DNA of 64,000 nucleotides from Candidatus Omnitrophota bacterium (GCA_026387435.1 JAPLLS010000035.1:1692-65691), one strand, 5' to 3'. Shown: positions 7,954-28,935, counted from the first letter of the stretch. The notes: generated by a model from the sequence alone, not told the origin. Made by a program: numbers and translations.

Positions 7954-7955
7954 CG

Positions 7956-9543: not shown

Positions 9544-9586
9544 CTTTTCACCTCCCATTATTAGTTTTGCATTATTTTTACTAAAC

Positions 9587-9763: not shown

Positions 9764-9802
9764 CTTTTACCTCCCTTTCTTCTGTTTACTGTTTTAGATA
9801 AA

Positions 9803-9946: not shown

Positions 9947-9963
9947 ATACACTCCTGTGTTAC

Positions 9964-10377: not shown

Positions 10378-10379
10378 CG

Positions 10380-10553: not shown

Positions 10554-10555
10554 CT

Positions 10556-10735: not shown

Positions 10736-10745
10736 ATGCCCTTCC

Positions 10746-10916: not shown

Positions 10917-10927
10917 CGCGCCCTCTC

Positions 10928-10962
10928 TAAAAAAAGGAACTGGTTACCAAATAACGGTAGCC
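10928..10962 (-). terminator. Terminator-like hairpin plus T-run in the 5' leader of the pilin array (possible attenuator)
   Basis: The minus strand reads GAACTGGCTACC-GTTATTTG-GGTAACCAGTTC followed by CTTTTTTT. This lies between the predicted promoter (11057-11085) and the first pilin start (10916). Confidence 0.35.
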
Positions 10963-11056
10963 AGTTCTTAGAGTAAACCCATTCAACGATTTTTGGCCGT
11001 GGCTACCATCTCCAAAATCGTACTTTTTATAAAATTACTTTCCTTTAGTCACTAGA

Positions 11057-11085
11057 AATATAACACACCATTGAGCCTTTGTCAA
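11057..11085 (-). promoter_or_regulatory. Sigma70-like promoter for the pilin array
   Basis: On the minus strand: TTGACA (11080-11085), a 17-nt spacer, and TATATT (11057-11062). Confidence 0.4.
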
Positions 11086-11195
11086 TCCGCGCAGGCCTTA
11101 AAAAGAAACCGTTTTCTTATTCAAAACCCCTGGTAATTGCAAAGAATGCGAGTTTCTAAGCATTTAACATGAAGATATTCCGGCGGGAAGAAGAA

Positions 11196-11243
11196 AAAAA
11201 ATACACTTTTTTGAGCCGGAAAAAGTGTATTTTTTCAAAACGC
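11196..11243 (-). terminator. Rho-independent terminator of the HTH gene
   Basis: The minus strand reads AAAATACACTTTTT-CCGGCTC-AAAAAGTGTATTTT followed by TTTTCTTC. Confidence 0.55.
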
Positions 11244-11269
11244 ATTTTAGCTAAATTTACAAGAAAGGT

Positions 11270-12325: not shown

Positions 12326-12333
12326 GTTCTAAT

Positions 12334-12402
12334 TTGGACATTTATTTCAGGTTTTGGACATTATTTATTTTAACTATACCATACTTCTGGACATTTATCA
12401 AT
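12334..12402 (-). promoter_or_regulatory. Promoter of the HTH gene containing three direct repeats of TTGGACATT(T)AT
   Basis: Repeat copies at 12334-12345, 12354-12366 and 12388-12402. The coding strand reads TTGATA-N17-TATAGT (-35 at 12396-12401, -10 at 12373-12378). One repeat overlaps the spacer and two lie between the -10 box and the ATG. Confidence 0.45.
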
Positions 12403-12433
12403 ATTAATAATAAAAGGGAGGGGAATAGCAGGC

Positions 12434-12778
12434 TTATTCTATAATTATAATTTCATCTTTTATTTGAGTTTTACTGGCTTGAATTGCCCCTTCGGGTAAT
12501 TCAATAGTAGTAATTGCCTTAAAGTAGATCGGGCTTACCCGAAACGGCTTGAACCCGGGAGTTAGGGCGATTACCTGCCTATTGCGGTCCAGGAATATGG
12601 CGTCAAAAGTAAAGCGCATGAAAAAAGAGTGGATGGAATTGGAAGGAGTAATAATTAGGCCTTCGCTTGGCTTAAGGCTGGGGCGATTCAATAGCCCGAC
12701 TAATCTCGAAAAGAATGTATCGGCGGTCTTGGCTTTATCCGCAAGAACCGTGTTGCGGGAACGGTTAATTATCCTCAT
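12434..12778 (-). CDS. DUF192 (COG1430) family protein
   Basis: 114 aa; …ADTFFSRLVGLLNRP…GLIITPSNSIHSFFMRFTFDAIFLDRN… matches the DUF192 pattern. Confidence 0.6.
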   Translation of the reverse strand: MRIINRSRNTVLADKAKTADTFFSRLVGLLNRPSLKPSEGLIITPSNSIHSFFMRFTFDAIFLDRNRQVIALTPGFKPFRVSPIYFKAITTIELPEGAIQASKTQIKDEIIIIE

Positions 12779-14958
12779 TATTTAGGTTTAAAGATATCTT
12801 CGGAAATAGAAATACCGCGTCTTTTGATCTCGTCAAAGAAGGTGGGAAGGTTTCCAGTAGGGGTAAAGTAGCCTTCGACTTTGCCCAGCTCGCCTACTCC
12901 GGTTTGCTTGAAGTCGAATAAATCCTGCATTCCAATATGCAGTTCATCGGTCATGCCGGTCAATTCGCTTATCTGGACGACTTTCCTGGAGCCGTCAGAA
13001 AGCCGGGCAGTATGCACGATCAAATCTATGGCCGAAGCGATCATTTCGCGGATAGCGCGCAAAGGTATTTCTATCCCGCCCATCAAGATCAAAGAGTCAA
13101 GCCTGGCCAGAACGTCCTGGGTGGAATTGGCGTGCAGGGTGGTCATTGAGCCGTCATGGCCGGTATTCATAGCCTGAAGCATGTCCAGGGCTTCCAGGCC
13201 GCGGCACTCTCCGATGATTATCCGGTCCGGGCGCATACGCATGGAGTTGCGGAACAAATCGCGCACGGTTATAGCGCCCTTACCTTCTATATTTTGCGGC
13301 CGGGACTCCAGCCTTACCCAGTGCTGATGATGAAGTTTTAATTCCGCGGCGTCTTCGATAGTGAGGATCCTTTCTCCGTCGGGGATAAATTCGGAAAGGA
13401 TGTTCAAGACCGTGGTTTTACCTGAGCCGGTTCCTCCAGAAACGATGATATTCTTGCGGGATATAACACAGATTCTTATAAATTCACCCATCACTTCATT
13501 AAGAGAATTGATGCGGCACAGGTCTGTTACAGTCATCCGTTCCTGGGGGAACTTACGGATAGTCAAAGTCGGGCCGGTCAGCGCCAAAGGCGGGATTATG
13601 GCGTTAACGCGGGAACCGTCGATTAATCTTCCGTCGACCATGGGCACGGATTCGTCTATCCTTCTGCCCAAAGGCGCAATGATCCTCTCGATTATCTGCC
13701 GGACTTGCCCGTTAGAAACGAACTTCTTGGCAGTCAGTTCCAATTTACCGTTTTTCTCCACATATATCTGGTTTTTATTGTTGACCATGATGTCGGTCAC
13801 CAGCGGATCGGCAACCAGATCCTCAAGCGGGCCGAGGCCGACGGCTTCATCGATCATTTCTTTAATAAACTGCTGCCGTTCGGTAAATGAAGGGACAAAA
13901 CTTTCCGTCTCTTCAGCCAGGGAATTGGATATCGATTTTTTGACCTTTTCTTTCAACTCCCGCAATTTCTTCGGGTCGCCGAGCACTACTTCCAGGCGGT
14001 GCAAATCCAGATCCTGGATGATCTTCAAGTGTATGCGCTGTTTCAACTGGTTGAGCTTGTCTTCTTTGGTTAACTGCTTGGGCTGGAGATTTTCCCGGGA
14101 GGAAAGGCTTAACCCTCCCTTGGTCTCGCTTTCCAGAGCCACTTCAAGGCTCTCGTCGGAAAGAGTCTCGATAATAGCGCCCTCAAGCTTCTTATGAACG
14201 GTAAAAAGCTCCTGGTCGGTAAGCAGATCGTCCGCAAGCTTATCGATCGCCAGCGAAGCCTTGGCCCGGGGATTATCCAGTACCAGCGGGTTTCTTCTGT
14301 TTAAAGCCAGGCATACGGCTTTGCCGTCGGAAGGGATGCGCGCAATTATCTCGCCGGGAATGGCGGATTTGACTTCCAGAAAAGATACGCCCCCCAGACT
14401 CTCTGCGCGGTTCAAAACTACTTTCATCATCCGCAAAGGGAAAGCAAAAGACTGCATGATATCTATGGCCTCTTTTACCTGCCCTACAGAAAGCACATCG
14501 GGATTGACGACAAATAAGATCAGGTTGGATTTCCCAAGGGTGGTAAGCAGGACTTTGGTAAAAACGCCGCCGCCTTCGATTACGATATAATCGTAAATTT
14601 TATCCAGCTGGTCGCATAGCGAGGCGATAAATTTCTCTTTTATTACCCCCCGCTGCCGGATATTCAGGGTTATTGGAAGGAAGTCCAGGCCGCTGAAGTT
14701 ATGGTGCAGGATATATTCCTGGATTTGAGTTAAATTGAACTGATCGTTGGTTTCCCATTCCGGGACAATATCGGCCAGGCTATGGACCGGTTTTAAATCC
14801 ATCAGCTTTGCGATATCTCCGGGGAGTTGCAAATCCAGGTCGACCAGAAGAACTTTGCCGTTGCCTATTTTGCGGGCGAGGCTGGTAGCGATATTAACGG
14901 CCAGGAAGGTTCTTCCTACTCCCCCTTTAGGGCTGAAAATGGCTATTGTTTTGGCCAT
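12778..14958 (-). CDS. Fusion protein: ParA/MinD-like TadZ/CpaE ATPase domain (N) + TadA/CpaF type II/IV secretion ATPase (C)
   Basis: 726 aa. The N-terminal half shows [19 protein letters not shown] (deviant Walker A) and [13 protein letters not shown]. The C-terminal half shows Walker [10 protein letters not shown], an Asp box and a His box [13 protein letters not shown], typical of CpaF/T2SS-E. Confidence 0.75.
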
Positions 14959-14959
14959 A

Positions 14960-16864
14960 TTATCTTTTTTGTTCTAGATTATACACGATAGGAATTTGCA
15001 CCCAGAGATCCTGCTCGCTTATATCCCGCGGGAAAGACGGGTAAGGAGCAATCCGCCTGGCAATGCTCATAGTATTCTCGTCAAGCACGCTATAACCCGA
15101 TGAATCGCTGATATTAGAATCAAGCAAATCCCCGGCTTTGGCCAGGTGCAGATTTAAAACAACTGTCCCTTGCAGCTCAGCCTGCTTGGCTGCCCAGGGA
15201 TAGAAAATATTATTGCTGAGGTATTCGCTGACTAGCTGGACGTATTCTTCGGCCGGTCCACCGAAAAGAACCTCCTGTTGCCCTTCGGCAAAAGGTTTTC
15301 TAGGGGAAACCGTTGCTCCTTTGTTTTGGACAGGGGCATTGCTCTTGGCAAGAACCGGCTGTTGTCTGCCGCCGGCAAAAGATTTTCCCTGCGAAACGAC
15401 CACTCCTCTATTTTGTTTATTGGCAGGGCCGGTTGCAGCAGCTCCTTGTTGCCCTCCGGCAAAGGGTTTTGTTTGTGAAACTACCACTCCCTTATTGTTT
15501 GCCGAAGAATATATCTTGGGAGCTATCGCTTCTTTACCCTCTTCCGGCCGGGAATCAGCTATTTTATCTCCACCGGGCTTAATTTGATTTTTTTTTTCCG
15601 CTTCCCGCTTTTCCGGGCCTTTATCCTCGACCACTGAGGGGGTAACCATGATGACTAACTCGGTGTCCCCCATCTCATCTTCTCCACCGCCCCTTATGGT
15701 AGTCCGGTGGCGGAAAAATACTCCCAAAATCGGGACTTCACCCAGCCAGGGGAACTTCTTCAGGTCTTCTTCGGTCTTTTGTTTGATCAAACCGCTGATC
15801 GCCAAAGTCTGGCCATTGTTAAGATAAAGCTGGGTAGAGGTTGAGCGTTTGCTTATAGGCCAGGCTTTGGCCGTTGGGGCAGTGACTAAGCCCAATACTT
15901 CCGCAGTCCCGACATCGCTGACTTCCACATTAAGCCCGAGCTTTATTTTTCCGTCGGAATTTAAAGAAGGAGACATTTTCAACTTGATCCCATACTCCTT
16001 ATACTCTACGGTATTGGAAGTGTTCGAACTACCGCTTACGCTTTGAGTGGTCATGACCGGCTTTTCCCCTCCGACCAAAAGCTCAGCTTCCTTGCCGCTC
16101 TGGCAAGACAATTTTGGCCGGGAAAGTATCTTAGCCTTGTTGTCTTTGACCATTAAATTCAAGGTCGCTTCCAATTGCTGATGCGTCCATTCACTCACTC
16201 TGAACAATGAGTTCGGAACATCGGCAAGCCTATCCCAACGCGGGGGCTCAGTAAGCAGCACAGACCCGCCGCTTAAAATCCAATCCATGCCCATTTGTTT
16301 AGTATAGCCTTTGTCTACCTCTATGATTTCGACTTCCAGTTCGATGATCGCTTTTTCTTCTTCGATCTGGATCAAATTGGTGGTCCTGGCAAAAAGGCCG
16401 CCCAGCGCGGTTTTGACCCGTTCCATGTCTTCCTTGGTTTTTACGCTGCCTAACAATAAAACTTTGCCTTCGCTGTCAGAGGGTTCGGTAGAAATCTGAG
16501 ACAAATTCAATTCCTTGAGCAGATCTTTAATCCGAGCATTGACATAAGCCATGGCTTCGGTAAGGACCTTTAAACTTGTATGGTGTTCGCCTTTTTCGTC
16601 CCACCAGATCAAGTTCGTAGATCCGGCCCCTTTGCCGACAACCACGATCTCTTTGGTGCTGACCGAAAGGATATCAGCTATCTCGGGCTTGCCGATGACC
16701 ACGCGAGTAGGAGTATTTACGCTGATCGACTTTAACTCGCCCTGATATAAAGTTTCTTCCGAGGAAGAAATTGCCGCCTTTTTTGTCTCCTGAGAAAAAA
16801 CAAGCTCCCTGCCCGGCAATAAAAACAGAGATAGAATTATTAAAAATGCCCGCGCTTTTCTCAT
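14960..16864 (-). CDS. cpaC: CpaC/RcpA-type secretin with a C-terminal repeat linker and TonB C-terminal-like domain
   Basis: 634 aa. It has a signal peptide and a pilus-formation N-terminal region (VNTPTRVVIGKPEIADILSV…). The secretin core reads …NGQTLAISGLIKQ…FPWLGEVPILGVFF…TELVIMVTPSVV. Three repeats of about 25 aa follow (NKGVVVSQTKPFAGGQQ…). The TonB_C-like end reads …QGTVVLNLHLAKAGDLLDSNISDSSGYSVLDENTMSIARRIAPYPSFP. Confidence 0.7.
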   Translation of the reverse strand: MRKARAFLIILSLFLLPGRELVFSQETKKAAISSSEETLYQGELKSISVNTPTRVVIGKPEIADILSVSTKEIVVVGKGAGSTNLIWWDEKGEHHTSLKVLTEAMAYVNARIKDLLKELNLSQISTEPSDSEGKVLLLGSVKTKEDMERVKTALGGLFARTTNLIQIEEEKAIIELEVEIIEVDKGYTKQMGMDWILSGGSVLLTEPPRWDRLADVPNSLFRVSEWTHQQLEATLNLMVKDNKAKILSRPKLSCQSGKEAELLVGGEKPVMTTQSVSGSSNTSNTVEYKEYGIKLKMSPSLNSDGKIKLGLNVEVSDVGTAEVLGLVTAPTAKAWPISKRSTSTQLYLNNGQTLAISGLIKQKTEEDLKKFPWLGEVPILGVFFRHRTTIRGGGEDEMGDTELVIMVTPSVVEDKGPEKREAEKKNQIKPGGDKIADSRPEEGKEAIAPKIYSSANNKGVVVSQTKPFAGGQQGAAATGPANKQNRGVVVSQGKSFAGGRQQPVLAKSNAPVQNKGATVSPRKPFAEGQQEVLFGGPAEEYVQLVSEYLSNNIFYPWAAKQAELQGTVVLNLHLAKAGDLLDSNISDSSGYSVLDENTMSIARRIAPYPSFPRDISEQDLWVQIPIVYNLEQKR

Positions 16865-17814
16865 TTTTTCTTCCCTTCGGATATTAGAGGAATCACTTCT
16901 TTTTGCAGTCCGCGGTAGACTTCTACGGTAACCGGCATTTTCCCCTCTTCCCTGGCCTTGGGGTATAAATATTCGAATAGATTATCCCAGTTAACCGGGT
17001 CGACCTCGGTCTGGGACAGATCAGAATTGGAACGCGTAACCAGCTTGATCTTTCCCTGTTCCTGAATAAAAGAGGCTAAAGCCGCTTCTTGAGGAGTAAG
17101 CGACAAGGTAACTGCATTTGCCGCGGCACTTGTCCCTTTCCCTTTAGGCTGCTCGATGTGCGCTCCGCCCGTATCTGAACCGATGGCCAGCACCAGGACA
17201 TTTTGAAAAAGCGGCACAGTAACTGACTTTTTTTCCTGTTTTTCCGTCTGTCCTCTGGGAGTTCTATTGACAATAGCATCAATAGTAGACCCCGGCGGAG
17301 GGCTGATTATTGCCAAAGCGTCCACATAATCCCCCGGCTGCAGCAATCCCTGAAGGCTGGCGATATTATCGACCAGCACAGAAACCGCCCTTTTGCCGCG
17401 GGGGGTGATTTCCGAGATGATTTTGGGTTTTTCCGGCGGAGCCCCAAGCTTATTCCTGAGTATCTGCTCGCCTTCGAGGATCTGTGACTGGGCGTACACT
17501 CCGACGATGTTAATAGTTGAGGCTATCGCCCCTGGCTGGATATAATCTTCCGGGACTTCCCGGCTGGCAATATCTTCGGCCACGATCGGCACTCCGGGAG
17601 AAATGGTGCGCGCTGCCACCAGAATAGCAACTTTCTTAACCTGCCTGGCCAGCCTTTCAGCTTCCTCGCGCTTCTTGACCGCTTCTATCTCTGTTTTTAA
17701 CTTCAACTCTTTTTCCGCAATATACATGCGGGCCAACACCGCTGCCAGAATACCACAAGCAATAGCAATTACGATCAACAACTTCTTTTTAAATTCCGGA
17801 TTAGGCTGAAACAT
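16861..17814 (-). CDS. cpaB: CpaB/RcpC-like Flp pilus assembly protein
   Basis: 317 aa. It has an N-terminal TM and a SAF-like segment (VAARTISPGVPIVAEDI). It lies immediately upstream of the secretin. Confidence 0.55.
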   Translation of the reverse strand: MFQPNPEFKKKLLIVIAIACGILAAVLARMYIAEKELKLKTEIEAVKKREEAERLARQVKKVAILVAARTISPGVPIVAEDIASREVPEDYIQPGAIASTINIVGVYAQSQILEGEQILRNKLGAPPEKPKIISEITPRGKRAVSVLVDNIASLQGLLQPGDYVDALAIISPPPGSTIDAIVNRTPRGQTEKQEKKSVTVPLFQNVLVLAIGSDTGGAHIEQPKGKGTSAAANAVTLSLTPQEAALASFIQEQGKIKLVTRSNSDLSQTEVDPVNWDNLFEYLYPKAREEGKMPVTVEVYRGLQKEVIPLISEGKKK

Positions 17815-17817
17815 AGG

Positions 17818-18708
17818 CTATTTCACCTTTTCTTGGTAATACGTAACGCTGGTTTTTTTGGCTAATTTGCCATTGAGCTCCTGCATTTTCTGCCGTTGTT
17901 TTATAGACACATAGGTACTCTTAACCTCGTCCCAAACATCATTTAAAGAAGGCACCTGGCCTCCGCGGCTGGCATCAAGCCTGATGATGTAATAGCCCCG
18001 CTTGTCTTTAAACACCGAGCTGATCTGCCCGTTTTCCAAAGAAGGCGAGAAGGCAATTTCGTCAAATTTCTTAAAGTCTGCCCCCCGCTGGCCTTTGGCG
18101 ATAAAACCCAGATCCCCGCCCTTAGAAGCGCTTTCCGCCTTGGAGCGCTCCTGAGCTAATGAAGCAAAATCCGTGCCTTTCAGCAATTCAATGAGGACCT
18201 CTTTAGCCTCGGCTTCGGTAGGCACCATAATTTCGCGGATCCTCCGTTCTTCGGCGGGGCGGAACTGGTCCTTATACTGCGCGTAGAAAGCCTCTATTTC
18301 CTTGGCCGGAGGGTTGGAATCTATGGTTTCTTTACTCAAAAATTCCCCGGCAACCAGGCTTACTTCCACATTTAAAAGCTGCTCTCTGATCTTGGGCTCC
18401 TTGTCAATGCCGTTGGCCTTAGCCTCGATATAGAAAAGATACCGGGGGACCAATACTTCTTTTAAGTAAGCGGTCTTTTCTTCCGGAGTCAATTTCTTAG
18501 GCTCAGCGTCCTTATTGAAGCGGGCATTCATCTCCGCGATCTCCTGGTCCAGCTGTTCCAGGGTAATATACATATTTCCTACTTGGGCAATGATCGTTCC
18601 TTCGGGTTTGACGGAGGGGGTAAGCGCGGTTGCGCCTATTTTCAGTTTTTCACAGCCGGTTAACGAAAAGGCGAGCAGGATCAAAAAAAAGAAAAACGAG
18701 TTTTTCAT
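17818..18708 (-). CDS. Lipoprotein parvulin-type peptidyl-prolyl isomerase (PpiC/PrsA/SurA-like)
   Basis: 296 aa. It has a lipobox LTGC and a rotamase domain …RRIREIMVPT…GGDLGFIAKGQ…FDEIAFS…GQISSVFKDKRGYYIIRL. It lies 4 bp upstream of cpaB. Confidence 0.6.
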   Translation of the reverse strand: MKNSFFFFLILLAFSLTGCEKLKIGATALTPSVKPEGTIIAQVGNMYITLEQLDQEIAEMNARFNKDAEPKKLTPEEKTAYLKEVLVPRYLFYIEAKANGIDKEPKIREQLLNVEVSLVAGEFLSKETIDSNPPAKEIEAFYAQYKDQFRPAEERRIREIMVPTEAEAKEVLIELLKGTDFASLAQERSKAESASKGGDLGFIAKGQRGADFKKFDEIAFSPSLENGQISSVFKDKRGYYIIRLDASRGGQVPSLNDVWDEVKSTYVSIKQRQKMQELNGKLAKKTSVTYYQEKVK

Positions 18709-18924: not shown

Positions 18925-19641
18925 ATGCAAAAAACCCCGGAAAAACTCAGCCTGTCAGTAATCTTGCCCATATATAACGAAGAGGCGAATGTTGAACTTA
19001 CCTTAAAAACGATCCTGGCTTATTTGGAAAAGCTGACCGATGATTTCGAGATCATCGCGGTCAATGACGGCAGCACGGACCAAAGCCCAAAAATCCTTGC
19101 GGAATTAGCCCGCAAACATCCCCGGATCAGTTTAATAAACAGCCCTAAAAACACCGGCTATGGCTGGGCCCTCAGAAAGGGGATAATCTCGGCCGCGAAA
19201 GATTGGATTTTGCTTTTCGATGCGGACGGCCAGTTCGACATAGCTGATCTGGAGAGGCTGTGGGAAGCAAAAGCCGGGATTGATTTTATCCTGGGCTGGC
19301 GCAGAAGAAGAAATGACAATCCCTACCGGAGGTTGCTGGGCTCAAGCGGGAATTTCCTGGCTAATCTTATTTTAAGGATCCAGCCCTTTATCAAGGATAT
19401 TAATTGCGGATTTAAGTTATTTAAAGCCGGATTAATAAAACCTCTGGCTTTAATGTCCGCGGGAGCAACAATAAACTTTGAAATCCTGTATAATTTGAAA
19501 AATTACCGCCCTGTATTCATTCAACTTCCGGTCAGCCATTACCCGAGAAAAGCCGGACGCGCTACCGGAGGAGACCTTAAGAACGTAGCGATACTTATAA
19601 AGGAATCTTTTAAAATAATATTTAAAAATGCACCTACTTAA
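18925..19641 (+). CDS. Family-2 glycosyltransferase (polyprenyl-phosphate sugar synthase / DPM1-like)
   Basis: 238 aa; …LSVILPIYNEEAN…IIAVNDGSTDQS… and a DAD motif (…LFDADGQFD…). Confidence 0.7.
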   Translation: MQKTPEKLSLSVILPIYNEEANVELTLKTILAYLEKLTDDFEIIAVNDGSTDQSPKILAELARKHPRISLINSPKNTGYGWALRKGIISAAKDWILLFDADGQFDIADLERLWEAKAGIDFILGWRRRRNDNPYRRLLGSSGNFLANLILRIQPFIKDINCGFKLFKAGLIKPLALMSAGATINFEILYNLKNYRPVFIQLPVSHYPRKAGRATGGDLKNVAILIKESFKIIFKNAPT

Positions 19642-21235
19642 ATTCAGAAAAACCGGCCCGGCCATATTGTTCATCTTGGGAGCATTGATTTTGCTGCTTT
19701 TGCTGAACGCCGCAATGAAAAATACCTTTGAGTTCGACCCTGACGAAGGCACTTACCTTGTTATAGCCAAGCTTTCCCTTCAGGGGTTCAAACTTTACAG
19801 CCAGATCTGGAACGACCAGCCGCCGCTTTTTACCGAACTTCTTTCTTCGTGGTTTAGAATATTCGGCGCCAGCGCGTATTCCGGAAGGTTTTTTAATTTA
19901 ATCTTTTCCCTGTTTCTGCTCTGGGGGCTTTACCGGATTATAAAACTCCGGAGTGGCAGTTCGGCCGCTTTGGCCGCGGGTATTTTTCTGATCTTATCGC
20001 AGGGATTCCTCCGTTTGGGCATTTCGATCATGCCCGGGCTGCCCAGCCTGACCCTGGCCGTGCTTTCCCTTTACAGCGCGACCATTTATTCGGGATCAAA
20101 AAGCAAACCGGCGCTCTTTATCTCGTCGGCTTTTATGGCTTTCGCGCTGGCGACTAAATTTTCCTCAATTATTTTAGCCCCTTCCGTCTTCCTGGAAATC
20201 GGCCGGGCCGAAGAAAAAACCGATAGACCTTTTCCCGCCCGCCCAAAAAATTTTATTTTGCCGTTTTTCTGGCTGATAAGCAGCCTGGTTTTTTACATTT
20301 GCTTTATGTGGCCGTATTTTTATTTGAATTTAAACTTATTTGCCGAACAGCTCTTCAGCCCTCATTTGGCAAAACTAAATATCCCCGGCGCTGATTTTAA
20401 TGTGATCTTTGCGCAGCTTTTACTGGATTATGACCTGGTTTTGCTGGGAGCTGTTGCCGTATTTACAAATCTTCGTTCTGGCGCCAGGCGCAACATCCTT
20501 CTGCCCGCTGTCTGGCTGGGGCTGGCCATTACCTGTTTTGTCATCCACCGGCCGATCTGGTATCATTATTATTTGCTGGTCTCTATCCCGCTTTGCTGGC
20601 TGGCGGCAGTCGCCCTGGGGCAATTCCTTGAAAGGAAAAACGGCAAGAATCCCAAAAGATTCCTTTATTATTTAAGCTTCGCCCTGGTTGTTTTGGCCAT
20701 GGCGCGGATACCGTTTAAATTTATCGATGGCTGCCTTATCTTGAAAGAACCGCCTATAGGAGAGGAAAAAAGAATCCTGGATCTAATATCGAAGTTTAAA
20801 AAAGACGGCCAATGGATGTTCACCGACCTGTCTATTTTCGCCTTCTCGAGCAATATTCTCGTACCACCGGAAACAGCGGTCTTAACCCAAAAAAACCCGC
20901 CCACAACAAAACTCGCGGCATCGGTCTTAAAAAAATACAAACCCGAACTGATATTATTGGGGAGGTTCACGGATTATGACCGGCAAATGATATCCGAGAT
21001 CCAGAAGGATTACCGCAAAGAAAGCGAAATAACGATTTTTCGGCCGGGATCTTTCCCGGTAAGCTCCTGGCTGCCTATCGCAGTATTTTTGACTCCCAGG
21101 ATACAATACCCCGTCAACAAGTGGCTGCGCCGCTTGAACTGGCAGCCTAAGATCCTGATAACGGAGCGGATCGGTTTTTTCTATACTCAAAACCTGACCT
21201 TATTTATCCGCAAAAATAACGCTGATCAATTTTAA
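19628..21235 (+). CDS. GT-C fold glycosyltransferase (PMT/ArnT family-like, GT39/83-type)
   Basis: 535 aa polytopic membrane protein with the first-loop DE motif (…FDPDEGTYLVIAKL…). Confidence 0.55.
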   Translation: MHLLKFRKTGPAILFILGALILLLLLNAAMKNTFEFDPDEGTYLVIAKLSLQGFKLYSQIWNDQPPLFTELLSSWFRIFGASAYSGRFFNLIFSLFLLWGLYRIIKLRSGSSAALAAGIFLILSQGFLRLGISIMPGLPSLTLAVLSLYSATIYSGSKSKPALFISSAFMAFALATKFSSIILAPSVFLEIGRAEEKTDRPFPARPKNFILPFFWLISSLVFYICFMWPYFYLNLNLFAEQLFSPHLAKLNIPGADFNVIFAQLLLDYDLVLLGAVAVFTNLRSGARRNILLPAVWLGLAITCFVIHRPIWYHYYLLVSIPLCWLAAVALGQFLERKNGKNPKRFLYYLSFALVVLAMARIPFKFIDGCLILKEPPIGEEKRILDLISKFKKDGQWMFTDLSIFAFSSNILVPPETAVLTQKNPPTTKLAASVLKKYKPELILLGRFTDYDRQMISEIQKDYRKESEITIFRPGSFPVSSWLPIAVFLTPRIQYPVNKWLRRLNWQPKILITERIGFFYTQNLTLFIRKNNADQF

Positions 21236-22795
21236 ATCGCTTCCCGGCTTAAAATAAAAAAAACTTCTCAGTTCTTTACTGACCTTATCCGCCAAGACCA
21301 AGACTGGCCGGATAACAAATTCTCCGGCGCTGGTCTTTAATTTCAAAGAGGCCTCCTTGTTCTTGAGCACAAATACTGCCTCCTGGCCACCTTCAAGAAA
21401 AATCTGCTTATCAGCACCGTTTTTAAGGCCGCGCGGGGCATATAATGTTAATCCTTCGAAAAATTTAAAACTATACAGAGGCAAATTCTCTACGGCATTT
21501 ACTTCTAATCCGGCATATCTCAGCGGCATTGTACAGCCATGGGCAGCAAGCCCATCGACGTTTTTGCCTCTCCAGGAACTTTTATGCCAGTTATTTAAAT
21601 TAAGCGAATTAACCAGGACCTGCGAGCTGACTAAAACCGCAGGCAGGAAAAATAAAAAGATCAATAGGGGTTTTTTAATTCCTTTAAAAGCTGCCGGCAA
21701 AAGCAGCGCCGGATAAATAAAAAAATACCGGTTGCCGAAAAACCCTATTCCTCCGAAATAATTCAAAGGCCGAAAAACTAACAATACAACTGCCAGAATA
21801 ACCGCCGTAAGCAGAATGCTGTCGCCTTGCGACGTTTGTTCCCGCGGGACACTTTTCCTGCGCCACAGATAAATCAAGATACAGACCGCAGCGGGAAAAC
21901 CGTACCAGAGAATGCCGCTAAACCTCCCGGTAAAAAAATTAACGATGTTGCTTGAAAAAAGCTGTGGAGAGTTAAATCTCATATCCGCTAGTTCAGAAGG
22001 AGCCAGCACCAAGCGGAGCCGTAATTCCTCCAGGCTCTGCGGGATGGCCCCGCCGAACAAAATATATTTAGGATCGCTGTAGGCGAAAAAGGTCTTAAGA
22101 CAATATCTTGTCAGAAGAATAGTAAGGATCAGGCCGAAAGAACAAAAACCAAGCGCCTTTAATAGCTGTTTAATCTTGTTTTTAGCCGCCAAATCCCCGG
22201 CCAGGGGTATCAACATAAGCAGAAATGTTATTTTCTCGCCGGCTATTAAACCGATGATAAAAGCGCAGGCCATTGGCTTATTAACGCTTAACAGAAAAAT
22301 ACACAAACTGCAGGAAAAGAACAAAAAGATATCCGGGGTGACCCAGCTTATATAGGCCGGGACAAAACTGAATAAAAAAAATCCGGCGGCTATTAATAAA
22401 GAAACGCGCCTGCCCAGATAGCGGCGCAAACCAAGATAAGAAAAAACTATGCATAATCCCAAAAGCAGGCCATTTAACCCGGCTAACCCAAGCCGGCCGA
22501 AGATCAAGAAGAAAAAAGCGGCGACCACCGGATAAATTACCGGTTTGGCATAACGCATATTGCCTGCGGCGTCCATCCTTACATATACCCCCACAGGGAC
22601 GGCCTCAAATTTTTCTTTATCCCACCTCTGGGCTTCTTTGTGGTCCAGCACAAGGTCGCCGTCTTTTGCCAGAGAACTGATCATCATATAATAAGAAACG
22701 CTATCGCCATGGATATGCGGACCGGCCCAGGCTGCGAATAAAATTACCAGCAGTAAAACAATGCCAATAATCCTGGTTTCAATTGCCATCTTCAT
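21200..22795 (-). CDS. Polytopic membrane protein, putative GT-C-like glycosyltransferase
   Basis: 531 aa with more than 10 predicted TM helices. The N-terminal loop reads HGDSVSYYMMISSLAKDGD. It is convergent with the preceding GT-C gene. Confidence 0.35.
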   Translation of the reverse strand: MKMAIETRIIGIVLLLVILFAAWAGPHIHGDSVSYYMMISSLAKDGDLVLDHKEAQRWDKEKFEAVPVGVYVRMDAAGNMRYAKPVIYPVVAAFFFLIFGRLGLAGLNGLLLGLCIVFSYLGLRRYLGRRVSLLIAAGFFLFSFVPAYISWVTPDIFLFFSCSLCIFLLSVNKPMACAFIIGLIAGEKITFLLMLIPLAGDLAAKNKIKQLLKALGFCSFGLILTILLTRYCLKTFFAYSDPKYILFGGAIPQSLEELRLRLVLAPSELADMRFNSPQLFSSNIVNFFTGRFSGILWYGFPAAVCILIYLWRRKSVPREQTSQGDSILLTAVILAVVLLVFRPLNYFGGIGFFGNRYFFIYPALLLPAAFKGIKKPLLIFLFFLPAVLVSSQVLVNSLNLNNWHKSSWRGKNVDGLAAHGCTMPLRYAGLEVNAVENLPLYSFKFFEGLTLYAPRGLKNGADKQIFLEGGQEAVFVLKNKEASLKLKTSAGEFVIRPVLVLADKVSKELRSFFYFKPGSDLKLISVIFADK

Positions 22796-25700
22796 TATTT
22801 TTATGGCGGGTTTCTTTTAAGGGATAAGAAATCATGTTGGCAAGGTTCTTCAATGCGCCCGGATGGAATTCCCGGAGTTGGCGGTTCCAGGAAAAAGTGC
22901 TGAAAATCAGGCTTCCCCGGCCGTAATCAGAAACAAGATAGCCGCTTTTTACAGCCTGACATTGAAAATCCGGACAGCTGGTCAATTCTTTAAAACGGCG
23001 ATCGTATTTTTCGGGGAAAAACAGCCCTCTTTCCTGGCGCCAGCCGGAAAAATCTCCTGCGGAAACTTTATTGGGCCAGTTAAAAAGCGGATGTTCAGGA
23101 ACAAGAAAGGTGACCGGGCTGGCAGGGTCGACTATCCCGTCAAAAATCATTTGGAACTGCCCGGAGACAATGCTAACCGTCTCCGGCTTTCTGGGCTGAA
23201 ACAAAACTACCAGGTTACCTCCCTTAGCCGTAAAATCTTCCAATTGTTTGCGGATATTTTCATCGGAAAACAGCTTATCAGCGCCCTTGCCGATCAAAAT
23301 AGTGTCCAGCCCGGATAAATCATTTTCCCGGATGTTTTTTTCATCCAGGTTCTTCAAGTCGCAACCCAGGATCTTAAGGCTGGCAAATAAAATATTGTCA
23401 TCCCGTTCGATCAAACCAATCCTCAATTTAGCTGCTATCTTTATCCCGGGGAACCCGGAATAAGCGGCTTTTGAGTTCTCCCCGGGATTAATCCCGCCTG
23501 CTTTATATTTGTCATCATCGGCTTTCTTAACCAGCCCATATACGATTTTTCCGGGATAGGAAAAAAGATCGGCCATCTCCCCCTGGCTTTTGTGCTCACT
23601 CAAAGATTCCTCGGCCAGTTTACGATAAGTCTTGTTGACCGAAGGTATCAGCTCATCAGGATCGATTGCGATCTCATCCAGCGGCCCCCCTTCTTTTTGA
23701 GCGAATTTTCTTTGATAAACTCTGTCCGCTTGCCAGGCCGGCAACCCGTCCTTGATCATCTCGGGCAGAGTTTTAGGATCGCCGGAAAGGTCAAAGGCCT
23801 CCTGACCGAGAATATTCAGCGCCTGATGAGCGCAATGGTCAACCGAAGCGGTGTACTCAGTGATCACGATATCCGGGCGGATCAGCCGGAAAAAATAAAC
23901 CAGCTGCAATAATGTCTCTTGTTTCCCCCAGTTTTGAAAGGCTTCCTGCGGGTCAAAACAATACCCGAAATCCTTCTTGTTCAAGTAATAGACCCGGTCA
24001 ACTCCTAAAACCTGCGCAGCCCGCTCCATCTCTTCGGTGCGCAAAAAACCCAAATCATCATACAATACCGGGCTGATCTGATTCTCTCCGGCCTCTCCCC
24101 GAGTAGCTAATAGAATGTAAGTTTTGGCATTAAACCTTTTTTTGAAATAGGCCAGGCTTTCGGCTTCTTCGTCGTCCGGATGAGCCGCCAGACAGAGCAC
24201 ACGAAGCTCTCCGGAGGGAAGAACCGGCCTAATCCGGCTAAGCATTTCTTGAAGCCGGGTTAATTTAAGGATCATCCGATCAGCCAGAAGCTCCGGATGG
24301 GATCGATCATGGATATTCCCGAATTTCTGCTCTTCTAAATCCCAGCGCAGGAAGGTTTCCTTAAAAAGCTTGTAAGCGCAGATTGCCGTGTTACGATCGG
24401 GAAAATTCCTCAGCCATTTTATTGGCAGGTCCCTAAAGTCTTTAAGGATTACAGCGGGAGCATCGCTTACCATGTCTATATACAAGGGCGAAAGGAAATC
24501 CGGGTTGGGAGGGGCTAAAATTTTTCTTTGCTTAATTTCCGTGTACTCTTTGATATATCCGTCAACCGAGCCGGCAAGGATATTTATTATCCTCTCCTGC
24601 TCTTCCCGGGAAAGCAGGCTGAAATCAAAAAATGATCTTTCGGTTGCGCAAGACGTTTTTCGTTCATCCTGAGCCTTGGTGCCGGGCGGAAACTTTTCCC
24701 CCTGGGGATTAAAGATTCTTTCAAATTCTCTGCCGGTTAAATATGCGCTCTGCGTGTCAAGATCGAGCTTAACTTCGATCACCCCGCCTCCTTCATGCTG
24801 TCCGGCGATAAAAAAAGGCGTTTTTGCCCTAGCTTGGACTTGCGGGATAATTTTATACTCGCGGACATGTATGCCGCCCAGGTTATATTTAATCGCCACC
24901 TCGGCGTCGCCGTAGGTATCAATGATGATTTTTTGGCATATTTTGTCCTCAAAGGACATGGCTTTTAATAAGTATGCCAGCGGCTTGCCAAAAACCTTCT
25001 CTTTTTCTTTCAATATCCTGGATACCGAATCGTCGATTTCCCGCTCGGTAAGTTTGCCGTCTTTGACGGCTTTCTTAACTGATCGCAGTACGGTAAGGAT
25101 GACTTCCTCGGCTTTTTCCGGATCAGGATAGATTATGACCATATCCGTCCCCGCGGAAAAAGACATGGCCGCGATTTCTCCAATAAAAGGCCCGGCGATC
25201 CCTTGCTGCAAAGCGTATTCTCCCATCGCCTGCATGTTCAGCAATTCATCGGAAATGATCAGCCCCTTAAATCCCAGTTTTTTCCTAAGAAGCTGGCTTT
25301 GGATCTTATAAGACAGCGAAGCGGGTTTATTATCGAGGGCCGGATAGATGGCATGGCTGGTCATGATCATAAAGGGCCGGTTTTTTCTGATCAATTTTTT
25401 ATAGGGGGCTAAATCTTTCTCCTCAAGGCTGGATTTGGAGGAATCGACTTTAGGCAGCCATTTATGGGTGTCGTTGAACGCTGACCCCAGCCCGGGAAAA
25501 TGCTTTACCACCGGTATCACGTCTTGAGAATTATGCGCTTGAACGATCCGGTCGACCAATTGAAAAACCAATTCCGGATTATCGGAGAATATCTTTTCTT
25601 TTTTTACCAGGACTATGCCGGAATCGTTAATATCTCCGGCTACATCGGCGACTACGCCAAGATTAAGATTATAACCGTAGCTTTTCATCCGGGCCGCCAC

Positions 25701-26606
25701 CCCGGACCATTCATCCCCCAGCCGGGCAAGATATCCCTCTTTTGAATCCGGGACATGATAAAAAGATTCGTCTTTTTGAATGAAATAATCGGCCAATTTT
25801 TTCATTTCCTCCAGAACTAATTGGGTGCGGTATTCTTTTATGGCCTCAGCCTTAGCCAGCTTTAAAGAGGAAGCGACGCCCTGACCATTAGAACATAAGT
25901 CAACAGCCGGAACTCTCGAATTGGAAGTTGTATGGATTATATAGTAAAAAACTTCGGGGTTAATGAATTTATCTTTTTGCTCGTTTTTGAGCTCATCCAG
26001 CGCTTTATTCAAAAAATTAGCGCCGGCAACGTGATCTTTGTGTTTGTCTAGGGGGGAAGGCGAGTAAATTATCTTGGGCTGGTATTTTTTGAGAATATCT
26101 TTGATGTCCTGGGTCAGGTTTTCCCGGCTGTATCCGGATTTCGCCCTGCCCCAGGTTTTCTTATAAATCGAAGAGGATTGATTGGTATGCTCTGATCTAT
26201 ACCTGACATGTTCTTCCTGGCCCCACAAGAAAATCAGCCCGTCATCGGGGTAGCCTAAAAAAATCAGGTCTTCTTGAGGCAAGCCCATCTGAATTGCTGC
26301 CCGCAGCGCTTCTTCCTGGCGCTCTTGACCCAAGGCAATATAATCCTGCGCCGCGACCCCGGATTCGGGTTTATTTGCAAAAGCGGCTGCGCCGGACTCC
26401 GAACCATCACCATTGGTCAAAAAAACCACTTTTATTTTCTTGTGCTCTTTCACCCCCTGGATTATTGTTTGGCCGCAGGCCAGGGCTTCATCGTCCGGAT
26501 GAGGAGCAAATACCACCAGATCGACCGGTGGATCTTGGGCTTCCAAAAAAGAAGCGGCAAAAAAAATCGAAAGACAAGAAAATAAAAAGAGTTTTAAAAA
26601 TCTCAC
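22779..26606 (-). CDS. Secreted multidomain enzyme: LmbE/PIG-L deacetylase + GH3 (NagZ-like beta-N-acetylhexosaminidase) + second LmbE/PIG-L domain + C-terminal GATase1-like domain
   Basis: 1275 aa with a signal peptide. LmbE motif 1: VVFAPHPDDEALACG…HKDHVAGANF. GH3: VVKHFPGLGS…GFKGLIISDEL. LmbE motif 2: VLCLAAHPDDEEAESLAYF…DHCAHQALN. Confidence 0.6.
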   Translation of the reverse strand: MRFLKLFLFSCLSIFFAASFLEAQDPPVDLVVFAPHPDDEALACGQTIIQGVKEHKKIKVVFLTNGDGSESGAAAFANKPESGVAAQDYIALGQERQEEALRAAIQMGLPQEDLIFLGYPDDGLIFLWGQEEHVRYRSEHTNQSSSIYKKTWGRAKSGYSRENLTQDIKDILKKYQPKIIYSPSPLDKHKDHVAGANFLNKALDELKNEQKDKFINPEVFYYIIHTTSNSRVPAVDLCSNGQGVASSLKLAKAEAIKEYRTQLVLEEMKKLADYFIQKDESFYHVPDSKEGYLARLGDEWSGVAARMKSYGYNLNLGVVADVAGDINDSGIVLVKKEKIFSDNPELVFQLVDRIVQAHNSQDVIPVVKHFPGLGSAFNDTHKWLPKVDSSKSSLEEKDLAPYKKLIRKNRPFMIMTSHAIYPALDNKPASLSYKIQSQLLRKKLGFKGLIISDELLNMQAMGEYALQQGIAGPFIGEIAAMSFSAGTDMVIIYPDPEKAEEVILTVLRSVKKAVKDGKLTEREIDDSVSRILKEKEKVFGKPLAYLLKAMSFEDKICQKIIIDTYGDAEVAIKYNLGGIHVREYKIIPQVQARAKTPFFIAGQHEGGGVIEVKLDLDTQSAYLTGREFERIFNPQGEKFPPGTKAQDERKTSCATERSFFDFSLLSREEQERIINILAGSVDGYIKEYTEIKQRKILAPPNPDFLSPLYIDMVSDAPAVILKDFRDLPIKWLRNFPDRNTAICAYKLFKETFLRWDLEEQKFGNIHDRSHPELLADRMILKLTRLQEMLSRIRPVLPSGELRVLCLAAHPDDEEAESLAYFKKRFNAKTYILLATRGEAGENQISPVLYDDLGFLRTEEMERAAQVLGVDRVYYLNKKDFGYCFDPQEAFQNWGKQETLLQLVYFFRLIRPDIVITEYTASVDHCAHQALNILGQEAFDLSGDPKTLPEMIKDGLPAWQADRVYQRKFAQKEGGPLDEIAIDPDELIPSVNKTYRKLAEESLSEHKSQGEMADLFSYPGKIVYGLVKKADDDKYKAGGINPGENSKAAYSGFPGIKIAAKLRIGLIERDDNILFASLKILGCDLKNLDEKNIRENDLSGLDTILIGKGADKLFSDENIRKQLEDFTAKGGNLVVLFQPRKPETVSIVSGQFQMIFDGIVDPASPVTFLVPEHPLFNWPNKVSAGDFSGWRQERGLFFPEKYDRRFKELTSCPDFQCQAVKSGYLVSDYGRGSLIFSTFSWNRQLREFHPGALKNLANMISYPLKETRHKNNEDGN

Positions 26607-28807
26607 TGCTCTCTTTGGATGTAAATATCGTCTTTGCTCATGCCGTAGTGCCCCTTGGTTCGGCTGGTAATGCCGTAAGTTGTCAAGCCGGAGGCTGCAC
26701 TGCCGGGGGCTCCTGTTCGCTGAATGCCATCAATGATCCCGCTTAAATCATTTATGGGCCATTCCGGACCTGCGGGATTCCTGCGGTACCTGAACGTCCA
26801 CCAGGGGCCAACGGCAATATCATTGGTATAGCGCGAGACCGTAATATCGCCTATCGAGCCGCTAAGCTGGCCCTTAATAGTCCAGGTTTTCAAAAGGCCG
26901 CCCCAATCATATCCTTCTTTTATATACGGGAATTTATCTCTTGAGGGATAATTGTCCAGCAGCACTTGGGCAATATGATAGTTATGGTTTTTCTCGTCTA
27001 CCCAGCCGTAGATCGCTTCTTTTTGCAAATCCTCCGTAGTAGTATCGGGATACAATATCTTATTGGCCGCATTAGCGAAGGTCTCAATGGCGTCCATAAC
27101 ACCTCGCAGAGAGGTTTCTAAATTAACTAAAAGCTCAATGGCCTGGGCTATTTCTGAAGGCCCTGAAGTGGTGGCCCAGTTCAGTTCTCCTTGAAAACGG
27201 CAAGCCTGTATCGCGTGCGAACTGGGAGTGTGCGGTCCTCCGCAATCGTTACAAGGGCAATACACTGACCGGGTACGAAGAGGGCAAGGCGGGCTAATAG
27301 TGCTGTACAAATCCCCGTGGCCGCATAATCCTAATGAATATAATTCCGGATTGCAAGAGCAATAATTCCCAAACCAGGTGCAAGTATGGAAGGGGCAGCA
27401 ATAACATATGCATTGCCCGGAATCGTTGTATTTACAACAATACGTGCTGGCGCACTCATACGCGTCCGTACCTGTACCATTAAGGCAATCGCCATTAGGC
27501 AGGGGAACAATATTGCTGACATCAGCATTGATCATCTCCAATTGAGTGCGCCAAGCCAGGATCCCATTTGTTGTGGGGTTTCCATACACTACTTCATACA
27601 ACCTTCCATAGATGGTGTCAGGGTCATGGGGATTATCCTTATTATACCAAATTGGCAACCAGTCACCAAGAGTGGGGATCCGGCCAGAGACCGGGAGGTT
27701 GAGTAACTCCATGTCCCTGAGCAGGAATCCGCGCAACACCTCACTAACTTGCCCAATCTCTTGGTTGGTCCAAGTTACATAGCCGGCATATACCGGAGCA
27801 GCGAGCAGCCTAGTAGTCAATTCAGTGAATTTCTGGGGCAAGAATCCTGTGTTGGCGTTGCCGGTTATAAGCTGCCAAAACCATTGCCAAATATCCGTAG
27901 GCTCATTTGCGGTGACATGCGAAATTATTCTTACTATCTGTTTATCTGGAACAGCCCAGTCAGGGCAAGCGCCGTCGTCACAAGTTATATGCAAGGCGTC
28001 TACTTTTAAAGAAACCTCGGTATACATCCATGTTGTAGTGTCCCATTTATTGAACTCAGTGACCTTTACCAGGTTGTTGATAAGCAGCGCGATCTCCGGG
28101 CCTAAACCCGCTTCCGTTACCTTGCGATGGCGATCAGCCCAATACCAGCAAACATAACGGGGCACCTCTTGCTTCCCCTTCAAAATAGGGGCTTCGGGCG
28201 TATTGGTTAAATCGTATATATATGCATCGTCTACTATCAACACCCCATTTTTATCATAGTGGGATGCCAGTATGTACTGGTATACGTCTTCGGATTTTAG
28301 TGTCGCACGTTCTTGATCCGTCTGGGCCTGCTCAAGCATGGAGCCTATAGCACCCTCCCTGAGGGAGGAATATTCGGTCATTTGCGCGGCCGCATTCGAG
28401 AATCCGGCTTTCATAAGAAAATTAATTTCGCCCCAAAGTGGATTGGCGACCAGTATTAGTATTCCTAAGCTCAACGGCCGGCTCCAAAACGCAAGAACAA
28501 GAGCTAACAATACTCCAAATAGAGGGAGGATCAACCCCCAATTAAAACATACGAGTTGTGTGTCACCGATCATACCGCAACCAAACCCGGTAGCGAGTTT
28601 TCGTCTCAAAGTATCCCGTAACTCATTGATATACTGCGACCACTGCGAAGCCAGTTGCAAAGTGCCGCTGTCCGCGATCTGGGAGGTGGAAGTTTTGATA
28701 TCGCTGACTTTGCTGATATTGATGAGGACTATGGTTAAAAGGATTATGACCGCGATAAAGATGGTGATGATTACCACTACCTGGCCGGGAGTCTTTTTGG
28801 TTTTCAA
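26603..28807 (-). CDS. Cys-rich membrane-anchored protein of unknown function
   Basis: 734 aa. It has an N-terminal TM (VVVIITIFIAVIILLTIVLINI) and a dense Cys cluster (…CASTYCCKYNDSGQCICYCCPFHTCTWFGNYCSCNPE…CPCNDCGG…). It overlaps the downstream LmbE-GH3 gene by 4 bp. Confidence 0.5.
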   Translation of the reverse strand: MKTKKTPGQVVVIITIFIAVIILLTIVLINISKVSDIKTSTSQIADSGTLQLASQWSQYINELRDTLRRKLATGFGCGMIGDTQLVCFNWGLILPLFGVLLALVLAFWSRPLSLGILILVANPLWGEINFLMKAGFSNAAAQMTEYSSLREGAIGSMLEQAQTDQERATLKSEDVYQYILASHYDKNGVLIVDDAYIYDLTNTPEAPILKGKQEVPRYVCWYWADRHRKVTEAGLGPEIALLINNLVKVTEFNKWDTTTWMYTEVSLKVDALHITCDDGACPDWAVPDKQIVRIISHVTANEPTDIWQWFWQLITGNANTGFLPQKFTELTTRLLAAPVYAGYVTWTNQEIGQVSEVLRGFLLRDMELLNLPVSGRIPTLGDWLPIWYNKDNPHDPDTIYGRLYEVVYGNPTTNGILAWRTQLEMINADVSNIVPLPNGDCLNGTGTDAYECASTYCCKYNDSGQCICYCCPFHTCTWFGNYCSCNPELYSLGLCGHGDLYSTISPPCPLRTRSVYCPCNDCGGPHTPSSHAIQACRFQGELNWATTSGPSEIAQAIELLVNLETSLRGVMDAIETFANAANKILYPDTTTEDLQKEAIYGWVDEKNHNYHIAQVLLDNYPSRDKFPYIKEGYDWGGLLKTWTIKGQLSGSIGDITVSRYTNDIAVGPWWTFRYRRNPAGPEWPINDLSGIIDGIQRTGAPGSAASGLTTYGITSRTKGHYGMSKDDIYIQREQ

Positions 28808-28860: not shown

Positions 28861-28935
28861 TAGCCCCAACCGGATTTGAACCGGTGTTTAGTGGCTGAGA
28901 ACCACGCGTCCTGGACCAGGCTAGACGATGGGGCC
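28861..28935 (-). tRNA. tRNA-Glu (anticodon CUC), 75 nt, no encoded CCA
   Basis: Manual fold. Acceptor GGCCCCA/TGGGGCT. U8 and A14 are present. The D-arm TCTAGCCTGGTCCAGGAC resembles tRNA-Glu. Anticodon loop TTCTCAG; T-arm ACCGG-TTCAAAT-CCGGT. Confidence 0.65.

Follow-up and report, generated by a model that had tools for sequence, protein, structure and literature searches.

A secreted LmbE-GH3-LmbE enzyme with a predicted circularly permuted barrel, encoded beside a cysteine-rich TadG-like protein in Tad pilus loci of Omnitrophota

Gene pair and open reading frames

Here, we analyse a stretch of 64,000 nucleotides from a Candidatus Omnitrophota bacterium (GCA_026387435.1 JAPLLS010000035.1:1692-65691), hereafter the window, which encodes two unusual proteins on its minus strand. 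The first is an exported enzyme of 1275 amino acids (aa; 22779..26606, GTG start) in which two LmbE-type deacetylase domains flank a domain of glycoside hydrolase family 3 (GH3). The second is a cysteine-rich membrane protein of 734 aa (26603..28807, TTG start), which is encoded directly upstream and resembles the pilus-assembly protein TadG. An initial annotation, made from the sequence alone, had placed both open reading frames (ORFs) correctly at 22779-28807 and had proposed that they are translationally coupled. A Shine-Dalgarno sequence (AAGGAG) lies 7 nt 5' of the TTG start, and the GTG start of the enzyme gene shares 4 bp (GTGA) with the TGA stop of the upstream gene. The same annotation regarded the pair as a two-gene operon. 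The pair and its overlap are real, yet a third gene on the same strand (21200..22795), which overlaps the 3' end of the enzyme gene by 17 nt, had been overlooked. Its product, a GT-C-like polytopic membrane protein of 531 aa, weakly matches the putative glycosyltransferase family of Leptospira LA_3751/3752, and homologous genes follow immediately 3' of the enzyme gene in three related loci (L005, L007, L017).

A tRNA-Glu(CTC) gene predicted by ARAGORN (28861..28935, minus strand) is located 53 nt upstream of the start of the cysteine-rich protein, and a promoter scan found sigma-70-like hexamers farther upstream than the tRNA, at 28970-28998 and 29026-29055. The operon may be transcribed by read-through from this tRNA promoter.

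Searches of NCBI, JGI, ENA and Logan assemblies yielded 61 homologues of the enzyme with 33-77% identity, including an identical NCBI entry labelled 'PIG-L family deacetylase [Candidatus Omnitrophica bacterium]'. As these homologues stem from independent assemblies and are conserved over the whole length of the protein, the long ORF is not a product of merged genes or of assembly, a concern that the initial annotation had itself raised.

Circular permutation of the GH3 barrel

The GH3 domain was first recognised by the motifs KHFPGLGS (residues 368-375) and GLIISDEL (448-455) and is recovered by Pfam (Glyco_hydro_3, PF00933; E=1.1e-43, 150.3 bits versus a cut-off of 27). The match is restricted to profile positions 107-314 of 316. 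NagZ structures in the PDB likewise all align just from about chain position 100-120 onward, with residues 303-537 of the enzyme corresponding to NagZ/YbbD chain positions ~136-395. The absent N-terminal third of the barrel is found directly behind the end of the canonical domain. There, residues 541-634 are aligned in the family as 'MSLEEKIxQK...YNLGGI...IPLFIAGQHEGG', which can be recognised as a GH3 N-terminus. A profile of this region matches residues 10-105 of Bacillus subtilis NagZ/YbbD (E=9e-5), and five of its remaining weak matches are GH3 N-termini, too. By both sequence profiles and structure modelling, the (beta/alpha)8 barrel is circularly permuted. A first segment (residues 293-540; 24987..25730, minus strand) corresponds to canonical positions ~107-316 and carries K368, H369, D379, H381 and the putative nucleophile D453, and a second segment (residues 541-632; 24711..24986, minus strand), in which QHEGG replaces DQEGG, corresponds to canonical positions ~1-106. 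This arrangement explains why the Pfam match is partial; the canonical N-to-C order of the barrel does not occur in the enzyme.

We reversed the permutation in silico by setting the family alignment of residues 541-632 before that of residues 297-540. The un-permuted family profile aligned to YbbD 36-393 in one unbroken stretch (E=1.3e-53, 185.6 bits), and was also unbroken on LpqI 16-337, 4yyf 38-355 and the BglX-phosphorylase 23-356. With a single un-permuted sequence (541-640 before 291-540), the Pfam GH3 match still comprised positions 107-314 only, and because this test gave no extension, the evidence for the permutation comes from the family profile and the structure model. In the AlphaFold2 (AF2) model of residues 291-800 (predicted local distance difference test, pLDDT, 88.6; predicted template modelling score, pTM, 0.85), five strands are contributed by the first GH3 segment and three by the second, which is modelled at pLDDT 92-99. 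A Foldseek search with this model returned solely NagZ-type GH3 among the top structures, with ~250 of ~340 residues aligning sequentially at 2.5-2.8 Å; a partial sequential alignment is what is expected of a circular permutant.

The permuted order occurs at ten loci among 185,579 GTDB species representatives, all of them in metagenome-assembled genomes (MAGs) of Omnitrophota, two of which bear automated Planctomycetes labels. The other 70 retained GTDB matches comprise the canonical GH3 segment alone. Taken for itself, the partial Pfam match could be read as the mark of an artefact, i.e., merged genes, mis-assembly or a decayed and functionless GH3 fragment. Against this, domain order and catalytic residues are common to the 61 homologues, and the seemingly missing segment exists, is conserved and has a high-confidence model. 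Homologue conservation and the un-permuted family profile refute the artefact, for which we see next to no probability left. Our literature search found no description of a circular permutation of the GH3 barrel.

NagZ enzymes share the signature KH(F/I)PG(H/L)GxxxxD(S/T)H, which includes the catalytic His. The enzyme contains it as K368-H-F-P-G-L-G-S-A-F-N-D379-T-H381, in addition to D453. K368, H369, H381 and D453 are invariant in the 61 homologues; D379 is an Asp in 52 and an Asn in nine of them.

Deacetylase and accessory domains

From its N-terminus, the enzyme consists of a signal peptide, a first LmbE domain (LmbE1), the permuted GH3 barrel, a middle module, a second LmbE domain (LmbE2) and an amidotransferase-like domain. 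The initial annotation had assigned the LmbE-GH3-LmbE domains rightly, but had missed the permutation, the C-terminal domain and the middle module of ~160 aa. Its proposal that all of them are secreted in one polypeptide agrees with the full-length homologues, which start with classical Sec signal peptides (n, h and c regions with AxA-like sites at the end). In the window protein, a putative Sec-type signal peptide comprises residues 1-24 (26535..26606, minus strand), as read from the sequence and the N-termini of homologues. A lipoprotein signal was considered and rejected, as C11 is too near the N-terminus and is not conserved.

Both LmbE domains, flanking GH3 with the motifs previously quoted for them, were confirmed by Pfam, where PIG-L (PF02585) matched two stretches of the enzyme (E=4.8e-47, 160.1 bits). 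LmbE1 (residues 28-285; 25752..26525, minus strand) was delimited by Pfam, conservation and the BshB1 model, the alignment of which reaches residue 285. It contains PHPDDE at 35-40 and HKDH at 189-192, and its metal-binding and catalytic residues H36, D38, D39, H189, D191 and H192 are kept among the 61 homologues. LmbE2 (residues ~800-1010; 23577..24209, minus strand; Pfam, conservation) contains AHPDDE at 808-813 and HCAH at 924-927. In the same homologues, H809-P-D811-D812-E813 never varies, and conservation extends to H924 and H927. Both are PIG-L domains of carbohydrate esterase family 14 (CE14) and stay far under every equivalog cut-off (BshB, 82 bits versus 182.5; MshB, 59.6 versus 195; Mca, 55.7 versus 277). 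Judged by these residues, the three active sites of the enzyme, two CE14 and one GH3, are apparently intact.

The middle module (residues 633-795; 24222..24710, minus strand) is predicted to start with a disordered linker (635-655) followed by a domain of helices and small beta elements; residues 633-800 gave neither a Pfam match nor a PDB match by sequence profile. Six homologues lack the middle module, yet possess residues 541-632. The C-terminal domain (residues ~1055-1262; 22821..23444, minus strand) produced weak matches only. GLMA_2nd (PF22369) was detected in 10 of 16 members (best E=0.0014), DUF4350, ThuA and GH42M, all of one clan, matched weakly as well, and so did PDB entry 5gsm (E=0.0094); a homologous domain in P0105 is annotated as ThuA. 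These matches point to a class-I-glutamine-amidotransferase-like fold. Domain composition varies within the family. LmbE1 is absent from the homologues of L008, L010, P0027 and P0037, which retain a signal peptide of their own, and other variants are devoid of the C-terminal domain or of both LmbE2 and the C-terminal domain (P0040, P0041). The permuted GH3 barrel and at least one LmbE domain form the invariant core.

Among PDB entries, LmbE2 matches those of diacetylchitobiose deacetylases (3we7, 3wl4), and the GLMA_2nd family, which represents the second domain of GlmA, links the C-terminal domain weakly to this exo-glucosaminidase. Both would fit an offensive or nutritional function, in which glycans of a host or prey (chitin-like, cell-wall or S-layer) are deacetylated and then cleaved upon Tad-mediated attachment. 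An analogue is the chitin route of Thermococcus, where a CE14 deacetylase acts before an exo-glucosaminidase. Tad systems of Omnitrophota have moreover been tied to predation or parasitism (PMC10066038). We nevertheless consider this function quite unlikely. The enzyme has a Sec signal alone; neither a signal for release across the outer membrane nor a carbohydrate-binding module was found in it, and the loci show no linked genes for sugar transporters or catabolism. The coupling to a TadG-like membrane protein and a GT-C-like protein instead indicates envelope biogenesis.

Cysteine-rich partner protein

The extraordinary cysteine cluster noted earlier in the 734-aa protein is a module at residues 441-536 (27200..27487, minus strand) that holds 17 of its 22 Cys. 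Eight Cys are invariant and two nearly invariant among close homologues, and full-length relatives have 12-23 Cys (median 16) within 110 residues at the same position. While a word-based search retrieved 11 hypothetical homologues, a full profile search expanded the family to 417 relatives (77 at E<=1e-30); in the remoter ones, similarity is confined to the N-terminal 60-250 residues. This region starts with a long hydrophobic helix (residues 1-73; 28589..28807, minus strand) that resembles the TadE/G anchor and includes a conserved KKTPGQ motif. The Flp pilus-assembly TadE/G-like domain PF13400 was detected in 44 of 55 distant relatives (best E=1e-8) and weakly in two of the 11 close homologues (E=0.012). 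The window protein itself gave no Pfam (including PF13400) or NCBIfam match. It contains a second hydrophobic segment, and AF2 predicts a helix at 7-73 and, with moderate confidence, several alpha/beta domains, but the Cys region with low confidence (pLDDT 33-46). No fold in the PDB matched the model (Foldseek, best E=0.44).

From the profile-level relatedness, we conclude that the partner most probably is TadG-like, though divergent and with a novel ectodomain, and not a generic receptor or scaffold, as had been suggested for it. The Cys module is probably a disulfide-bonded knot; disulfides are favoured over a metal site because the Cys counts are mostly even and the location is extracytoplasmic. 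A literature search for cysteine-rich TadG proteins found nothing relevant. At L002, a secreted protein of 231 aa with 20 Cys is encoded directly upstream of the enzyme (9277-9972, plus strand). It looks alike by eye, but was not detected by a hidden Markov model of the Cys domain and we do not claim homology.

Genomic context in Omnitrophota

The window contains a full Tad pilus cluster (4501..18708) on the same strand as the gene pair. It encodes a peptidyl-prolyl isomerase (PPIase), RcpC, a secretin with a C-terminal TonB_C domain (14960-16864), a 726-aa fusion of a ParA/TadZ-like protein with a CpaF/T2SSE ATPase (12778-14958), a DUF192 protein, a 351-aa protein (11270-12325), pilins, TadB and TadC. 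The 351-aa protein has weak matches to helix-turn-helix and transposase-like Pfam families. It is probably a conserved component of the Tad locus and not a transposase, since L001 and L004 have ~340-aa genes without Pfam match in the corresponding place. Both the secretin-TonB_C and the ParA/CpaF fusions recur in related Omnitrophota loci. At least 12 Flp/TadE-like pilin genes form an array (6245-10916) with a prepilin motif of the type G/QS(I/T)LEY or 'KGQS(I/T)LEY'. Many of these pilins have Ser/Thr-rich C-terminal tails, and the repertoire is unusually large for a single Tad locus.

We compared 15 distinct loci (the window and L001-L017, with L002/L003 and L004/L011 counted once each). Tad genes (PPIase-RcpC-secretin-CpaF) adjoin or enclose the enzyme gene in 13 of them; the remaining two are L002/L003, with PilM/PilO genes, and L017, a short contig with glycosyltransferase genes only. 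The genes for the cysteine-rich protein and the enzyme are inserted between CpaF (tadA) and TadB/TadC in L008, L010, L012, L014 and L016, and the enzyme gene directly follows CpaF in L004/L011 and L015. In 10 of the 13 loci with sufficient upstream sequence, the enzyme gene is directly preceded by a TadG-like gene. By called coordinates, both genes overlap by 4 bp in the window, L001, L005 and L006, and are separated by a 121-bp gap in L007. Presence of the gene pair is a conserved trait of Tad pilus loci in Omnitrophota.

Trans-envelope machines often bring their own cell-wall enzymes, e.g., FlgJ or VirB1, and the enzyme might analogously remodel peptidoglycan for the Tad machine, by deacetylating and trimming N-acetylglucosamine (GlcNAc) at strand ends for insertion or anchoring, or by recycling muropeptides in the periplasm. 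Its best characterised GH3 relatives, YbbD and LpqI, are exported NagZ enzymes acting on peptidoglycan fragments, and at several loci the gene is embedded in the core Tad operon and has no glycosyltransferases in its vicinity. Yet NagZ-type GH3 enzymes work from the chain end and are unable to create openings in the sacculus, the N-deacetylases known for peptidoglycan belong to CE4 and not to CE14/LmbE, and Pfam scans detected no peptidoglycan-binding domain (LysM, SPOR, PG_binding). Peptidoglycan remodelling would also leave the frequent coupling to GT2 and GT-C genes unexplained. On balance, we think it unlikely.

This coupling is apparent in the window, where a pair of genes convergent to the enzyme operon (18925..21235, plus strand) sits between the operon and the Tad cluster and encodes a GT2 glycosyltransferase of 238 aa (18925-19641), followed by a PMT_2 GT-C transferase of 535 aa (19628-21235). 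The best full-length matches of the GT2 are ArnC, PpgS, AglJ and dolichyl-phosphate hexose transferase (DPM1-like), all below cut-off. PMT_2 and/or GT2 genes are present in the flank at 11 of the 15 loci. L002, the most divergent locus (enzyme identity 36%), has genes for the enzyme, PMT_2, GT2, PMT_2 and a DegT aminotransferase in the same direction. The initial annotation had named a matrix like poly-N-acetylglucosamine (PNAG) as one example of a substrate. We rejected a PNAG-type system. The sole GT2 covers just positions 43-139 of 407 in PgaC, and without a processive synthase resembling PgaC, a PNAG-type pathway is unsupported.

ArnC/PpgS-like GT2, GT-C transferases and a deacetylase together mirror pathways for lipid-linked aminosugars. 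The enzyme could thus serve housekeeping modification of envelope glycolipids or lipopolysaccharide with cationic groups of the glucosamine type (ArnC/ArnD/ArnT, LgmABC, NaxD/FlmK) and neighbour Tad genes by chance. Linkage to pilus genes, however, persists over a range of 36-77% identity, and five loci have the pair inserted behind tadA and ahead of tadB/tadC. Deacetylases of the named pathways are not of the LmbE type, and the GH3 domain would be left without a role. We therefore regard a glycolipid function as improbable.

Beyond the gene pair, a divergent cluster on the plus strand (29091-32730) encodes a protein with a FIST domain, a GAF histidine kinase and a response regulator, in which the GGDEF match covers profile positions 5-90 only. 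Such FIST/histidine kinase/regulator-GGDEF clusters occur divergently in six loci, among them L001, L004, L007, L008 and L015, and L001 additionally has a PilZ gene. Their recurrence suggests control of the pilus and enzyme module by cyclic diguanylate. A cluster of subunits similar to complex I and NiFe hydrogenases (36855-43250, minus strand), in which we scanned a single ORF, is unrelated to the gene pair; the scanned ORF, at 36855-38432, is a fusion of the 30-kDa and 49-kDa subunits.

Proposed role

From domain identities, conserved motifs, the permutation, export signals and synteny, we infer activity, substrate and biological role of the enzyme as follows. The two genes and the overlapping GT-C-like gene might make up a module that is accessory to the Tad pilus system of Omnitrophota. 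Exported to the periplasm by its Sec signal peptide, the enzyme would use both LmbE/CE14 domains for zinc-dependent N-deacetylation of GlcNAc-type residues, and its permuted GH3 domain would remove terminal beta-linked N-acetylhexosamine or hexosamine from a glycoconjugate in an exo-fashion. Neighbouring ArnC/DPM1-like GT2 and PMT_2/GT-C transferases could produce this glycoconjugate from polyprenyl-phosphate sugar donors. The glycan would most likely be carried by the Flp pilins, which are rich in Ser/Thr, by the TadG-like protein or by a polymer of the envelope at the pilus base, and its editing might tune charge, adhesiveness or assembly of the pilus. Deacetylation followed by cleavage of a GlcNAc-containing surface glycan is the most plausible biochemical reading of the domains. 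We tentatively favour the wider proposal of a periplasmic three-site enzyme that, as a Tad accessory, edits a glycoconjugate of the envelope or pilus that contains GlcNAc, though with less than full conviction.

Several observations speak against it. The sugar-binding Asp of the DQEGG motif is replaced by Q603 (Gln in 54, Glu in three, Met in two and Leu in two family members) and followed by a near-invariant H604, and at the Arg position of the RSF motif the window protein has K338, although 52 of the 61 homologues keep an Arg. As Q603 and K338 replace canonical NagZ residues, the specificity of the -1 subsite may be altered, and GH3 specificity or even activity may differ from NagZ. Among characterised GH3 enzymes, the closest relatives use muropeptides or chitooligosaccharides as substrates and not glycoproteins, and we know of no demonstrated glycosylation of Omnitrophota pilins. 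In addition, GT2 and PMT_2 are both absent from the ~10 kb around the enzyme gene at L004/L011, L012, L014 and L015; with these four loci, the link to glycosyltransferases is frequent, but not universal.

Each domain of the enzyme derives from a known family; new are the architecture, the topology and the association with the pilus. The combination had been put forward as undescribed, and our literature search found no LmbE-NagZ fusion and no such enzyme in Omnitrophota or Tad systems. The key study of Omnitrophota covers Tad complexes, but not these genes (PMC10066038). The gene pair suggests that sugar editing is part of building or using the pilus in tiny, possibly parasitic Omnitrophota. 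It is intriguing to go further and propose that the GH3-barrel permutant and the Cys-knotted TadG-like protein are obligatory in Omnitrophota Tad pili and that glycan editing is needed for host attachment, but we consider this stronger claim doubtful. If true, it would establish the first natural circular permutation inside a GH3 catalytic barrel and a previously unrecognised component of the Tad pilus, with editing required for ultra-small putative predators or parasites to attach to their hosts. Tad pili are the main genomic argument for Omnitrophota as predators or parasites, and a glycan-editing enzyme and a Cys-rich TadG-like protein offer expressible targets on the attachment organelle of uncultured nanobacteria.

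Comparison with known systems

With NagZ-type GH3 beta-N-acetylglucosaminidases (YbbD/NagZ 3bmx/4gyj, Mycobacterium tuberculosis LpqI 6gfv, Thermotoga CbsA/NagA 5bza/3wo8), the enzyme shares the fold, the KHFPG(H/L)GxxxxD(S/T)H motif, the His/Asp dyad and the Asp nucleophile, and YbbD and LpqI are likewise exported. It differs from them by the permuted barrel, by QHEGG in place of DQEGG, by the lack of a C-terminal alpha/beta sandwich and by the fusion of the domain between two CE14 domains. The altered -1 subsite motif and two flanking CE14 deacetylases represent a new architecture for specialists in carbohydrate-active enzymes.

LmbE/PIG-L deacetylases of CE14 (MshB, BshB, Mca, TT1542, diacetylchitobiose deacetylase, LnmX) share HPDD...HxxH and the PF02585 fold with both deacetylase domains. 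Those are single-domain and mostly cytoplasmic proteins, whereas the enzyme combines two divergent exported copies in one polypeptide. Uncharacterised secreted PIG-L proteins of ~820 aa from Bacteroidota (Pedobacter, Hymenobacter) are 29-38% identical to LmbE2 and the C-terminal domain, but have an insert of ~350 aa between the two domains and neither GH3 nor a second LmbE domain.

A functional analogy exists to PgaB (PNAG) and PelA (Pel), which also unite N-deacetylation and glycan cleavage in one periplasmic protein linked to adhesion; deacetylation by these systems yields cationic, adhesive glycans. PgaB and PelA, however, pair CE4 with GH153 or GH166 and are linked to a processive synthase, whereas the enzyme pairs CE14 with GH3 without such a synthase. 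TadG/PF13400 proteins share the hydrophobic N-terminal anchor, the position in Tad loci and profile-level relatedness with the cysteine-rich protein, which differs by falling below the Pfam threshold, by its second hydrophobic segment and by a large ectodomain with a cluster of 12-23 Cys.

The closest precedent for the permutation itself is provided by GH70 glucansucrases, which relate to GH13 by the same type of event, permutation of a (beta/alpha)8 barrel, in a clan and family different from those of GH3. Conserved and apparently active, the circular permutant of the GH3 barrel would stand beside GH13/GH70 as the second natural case.

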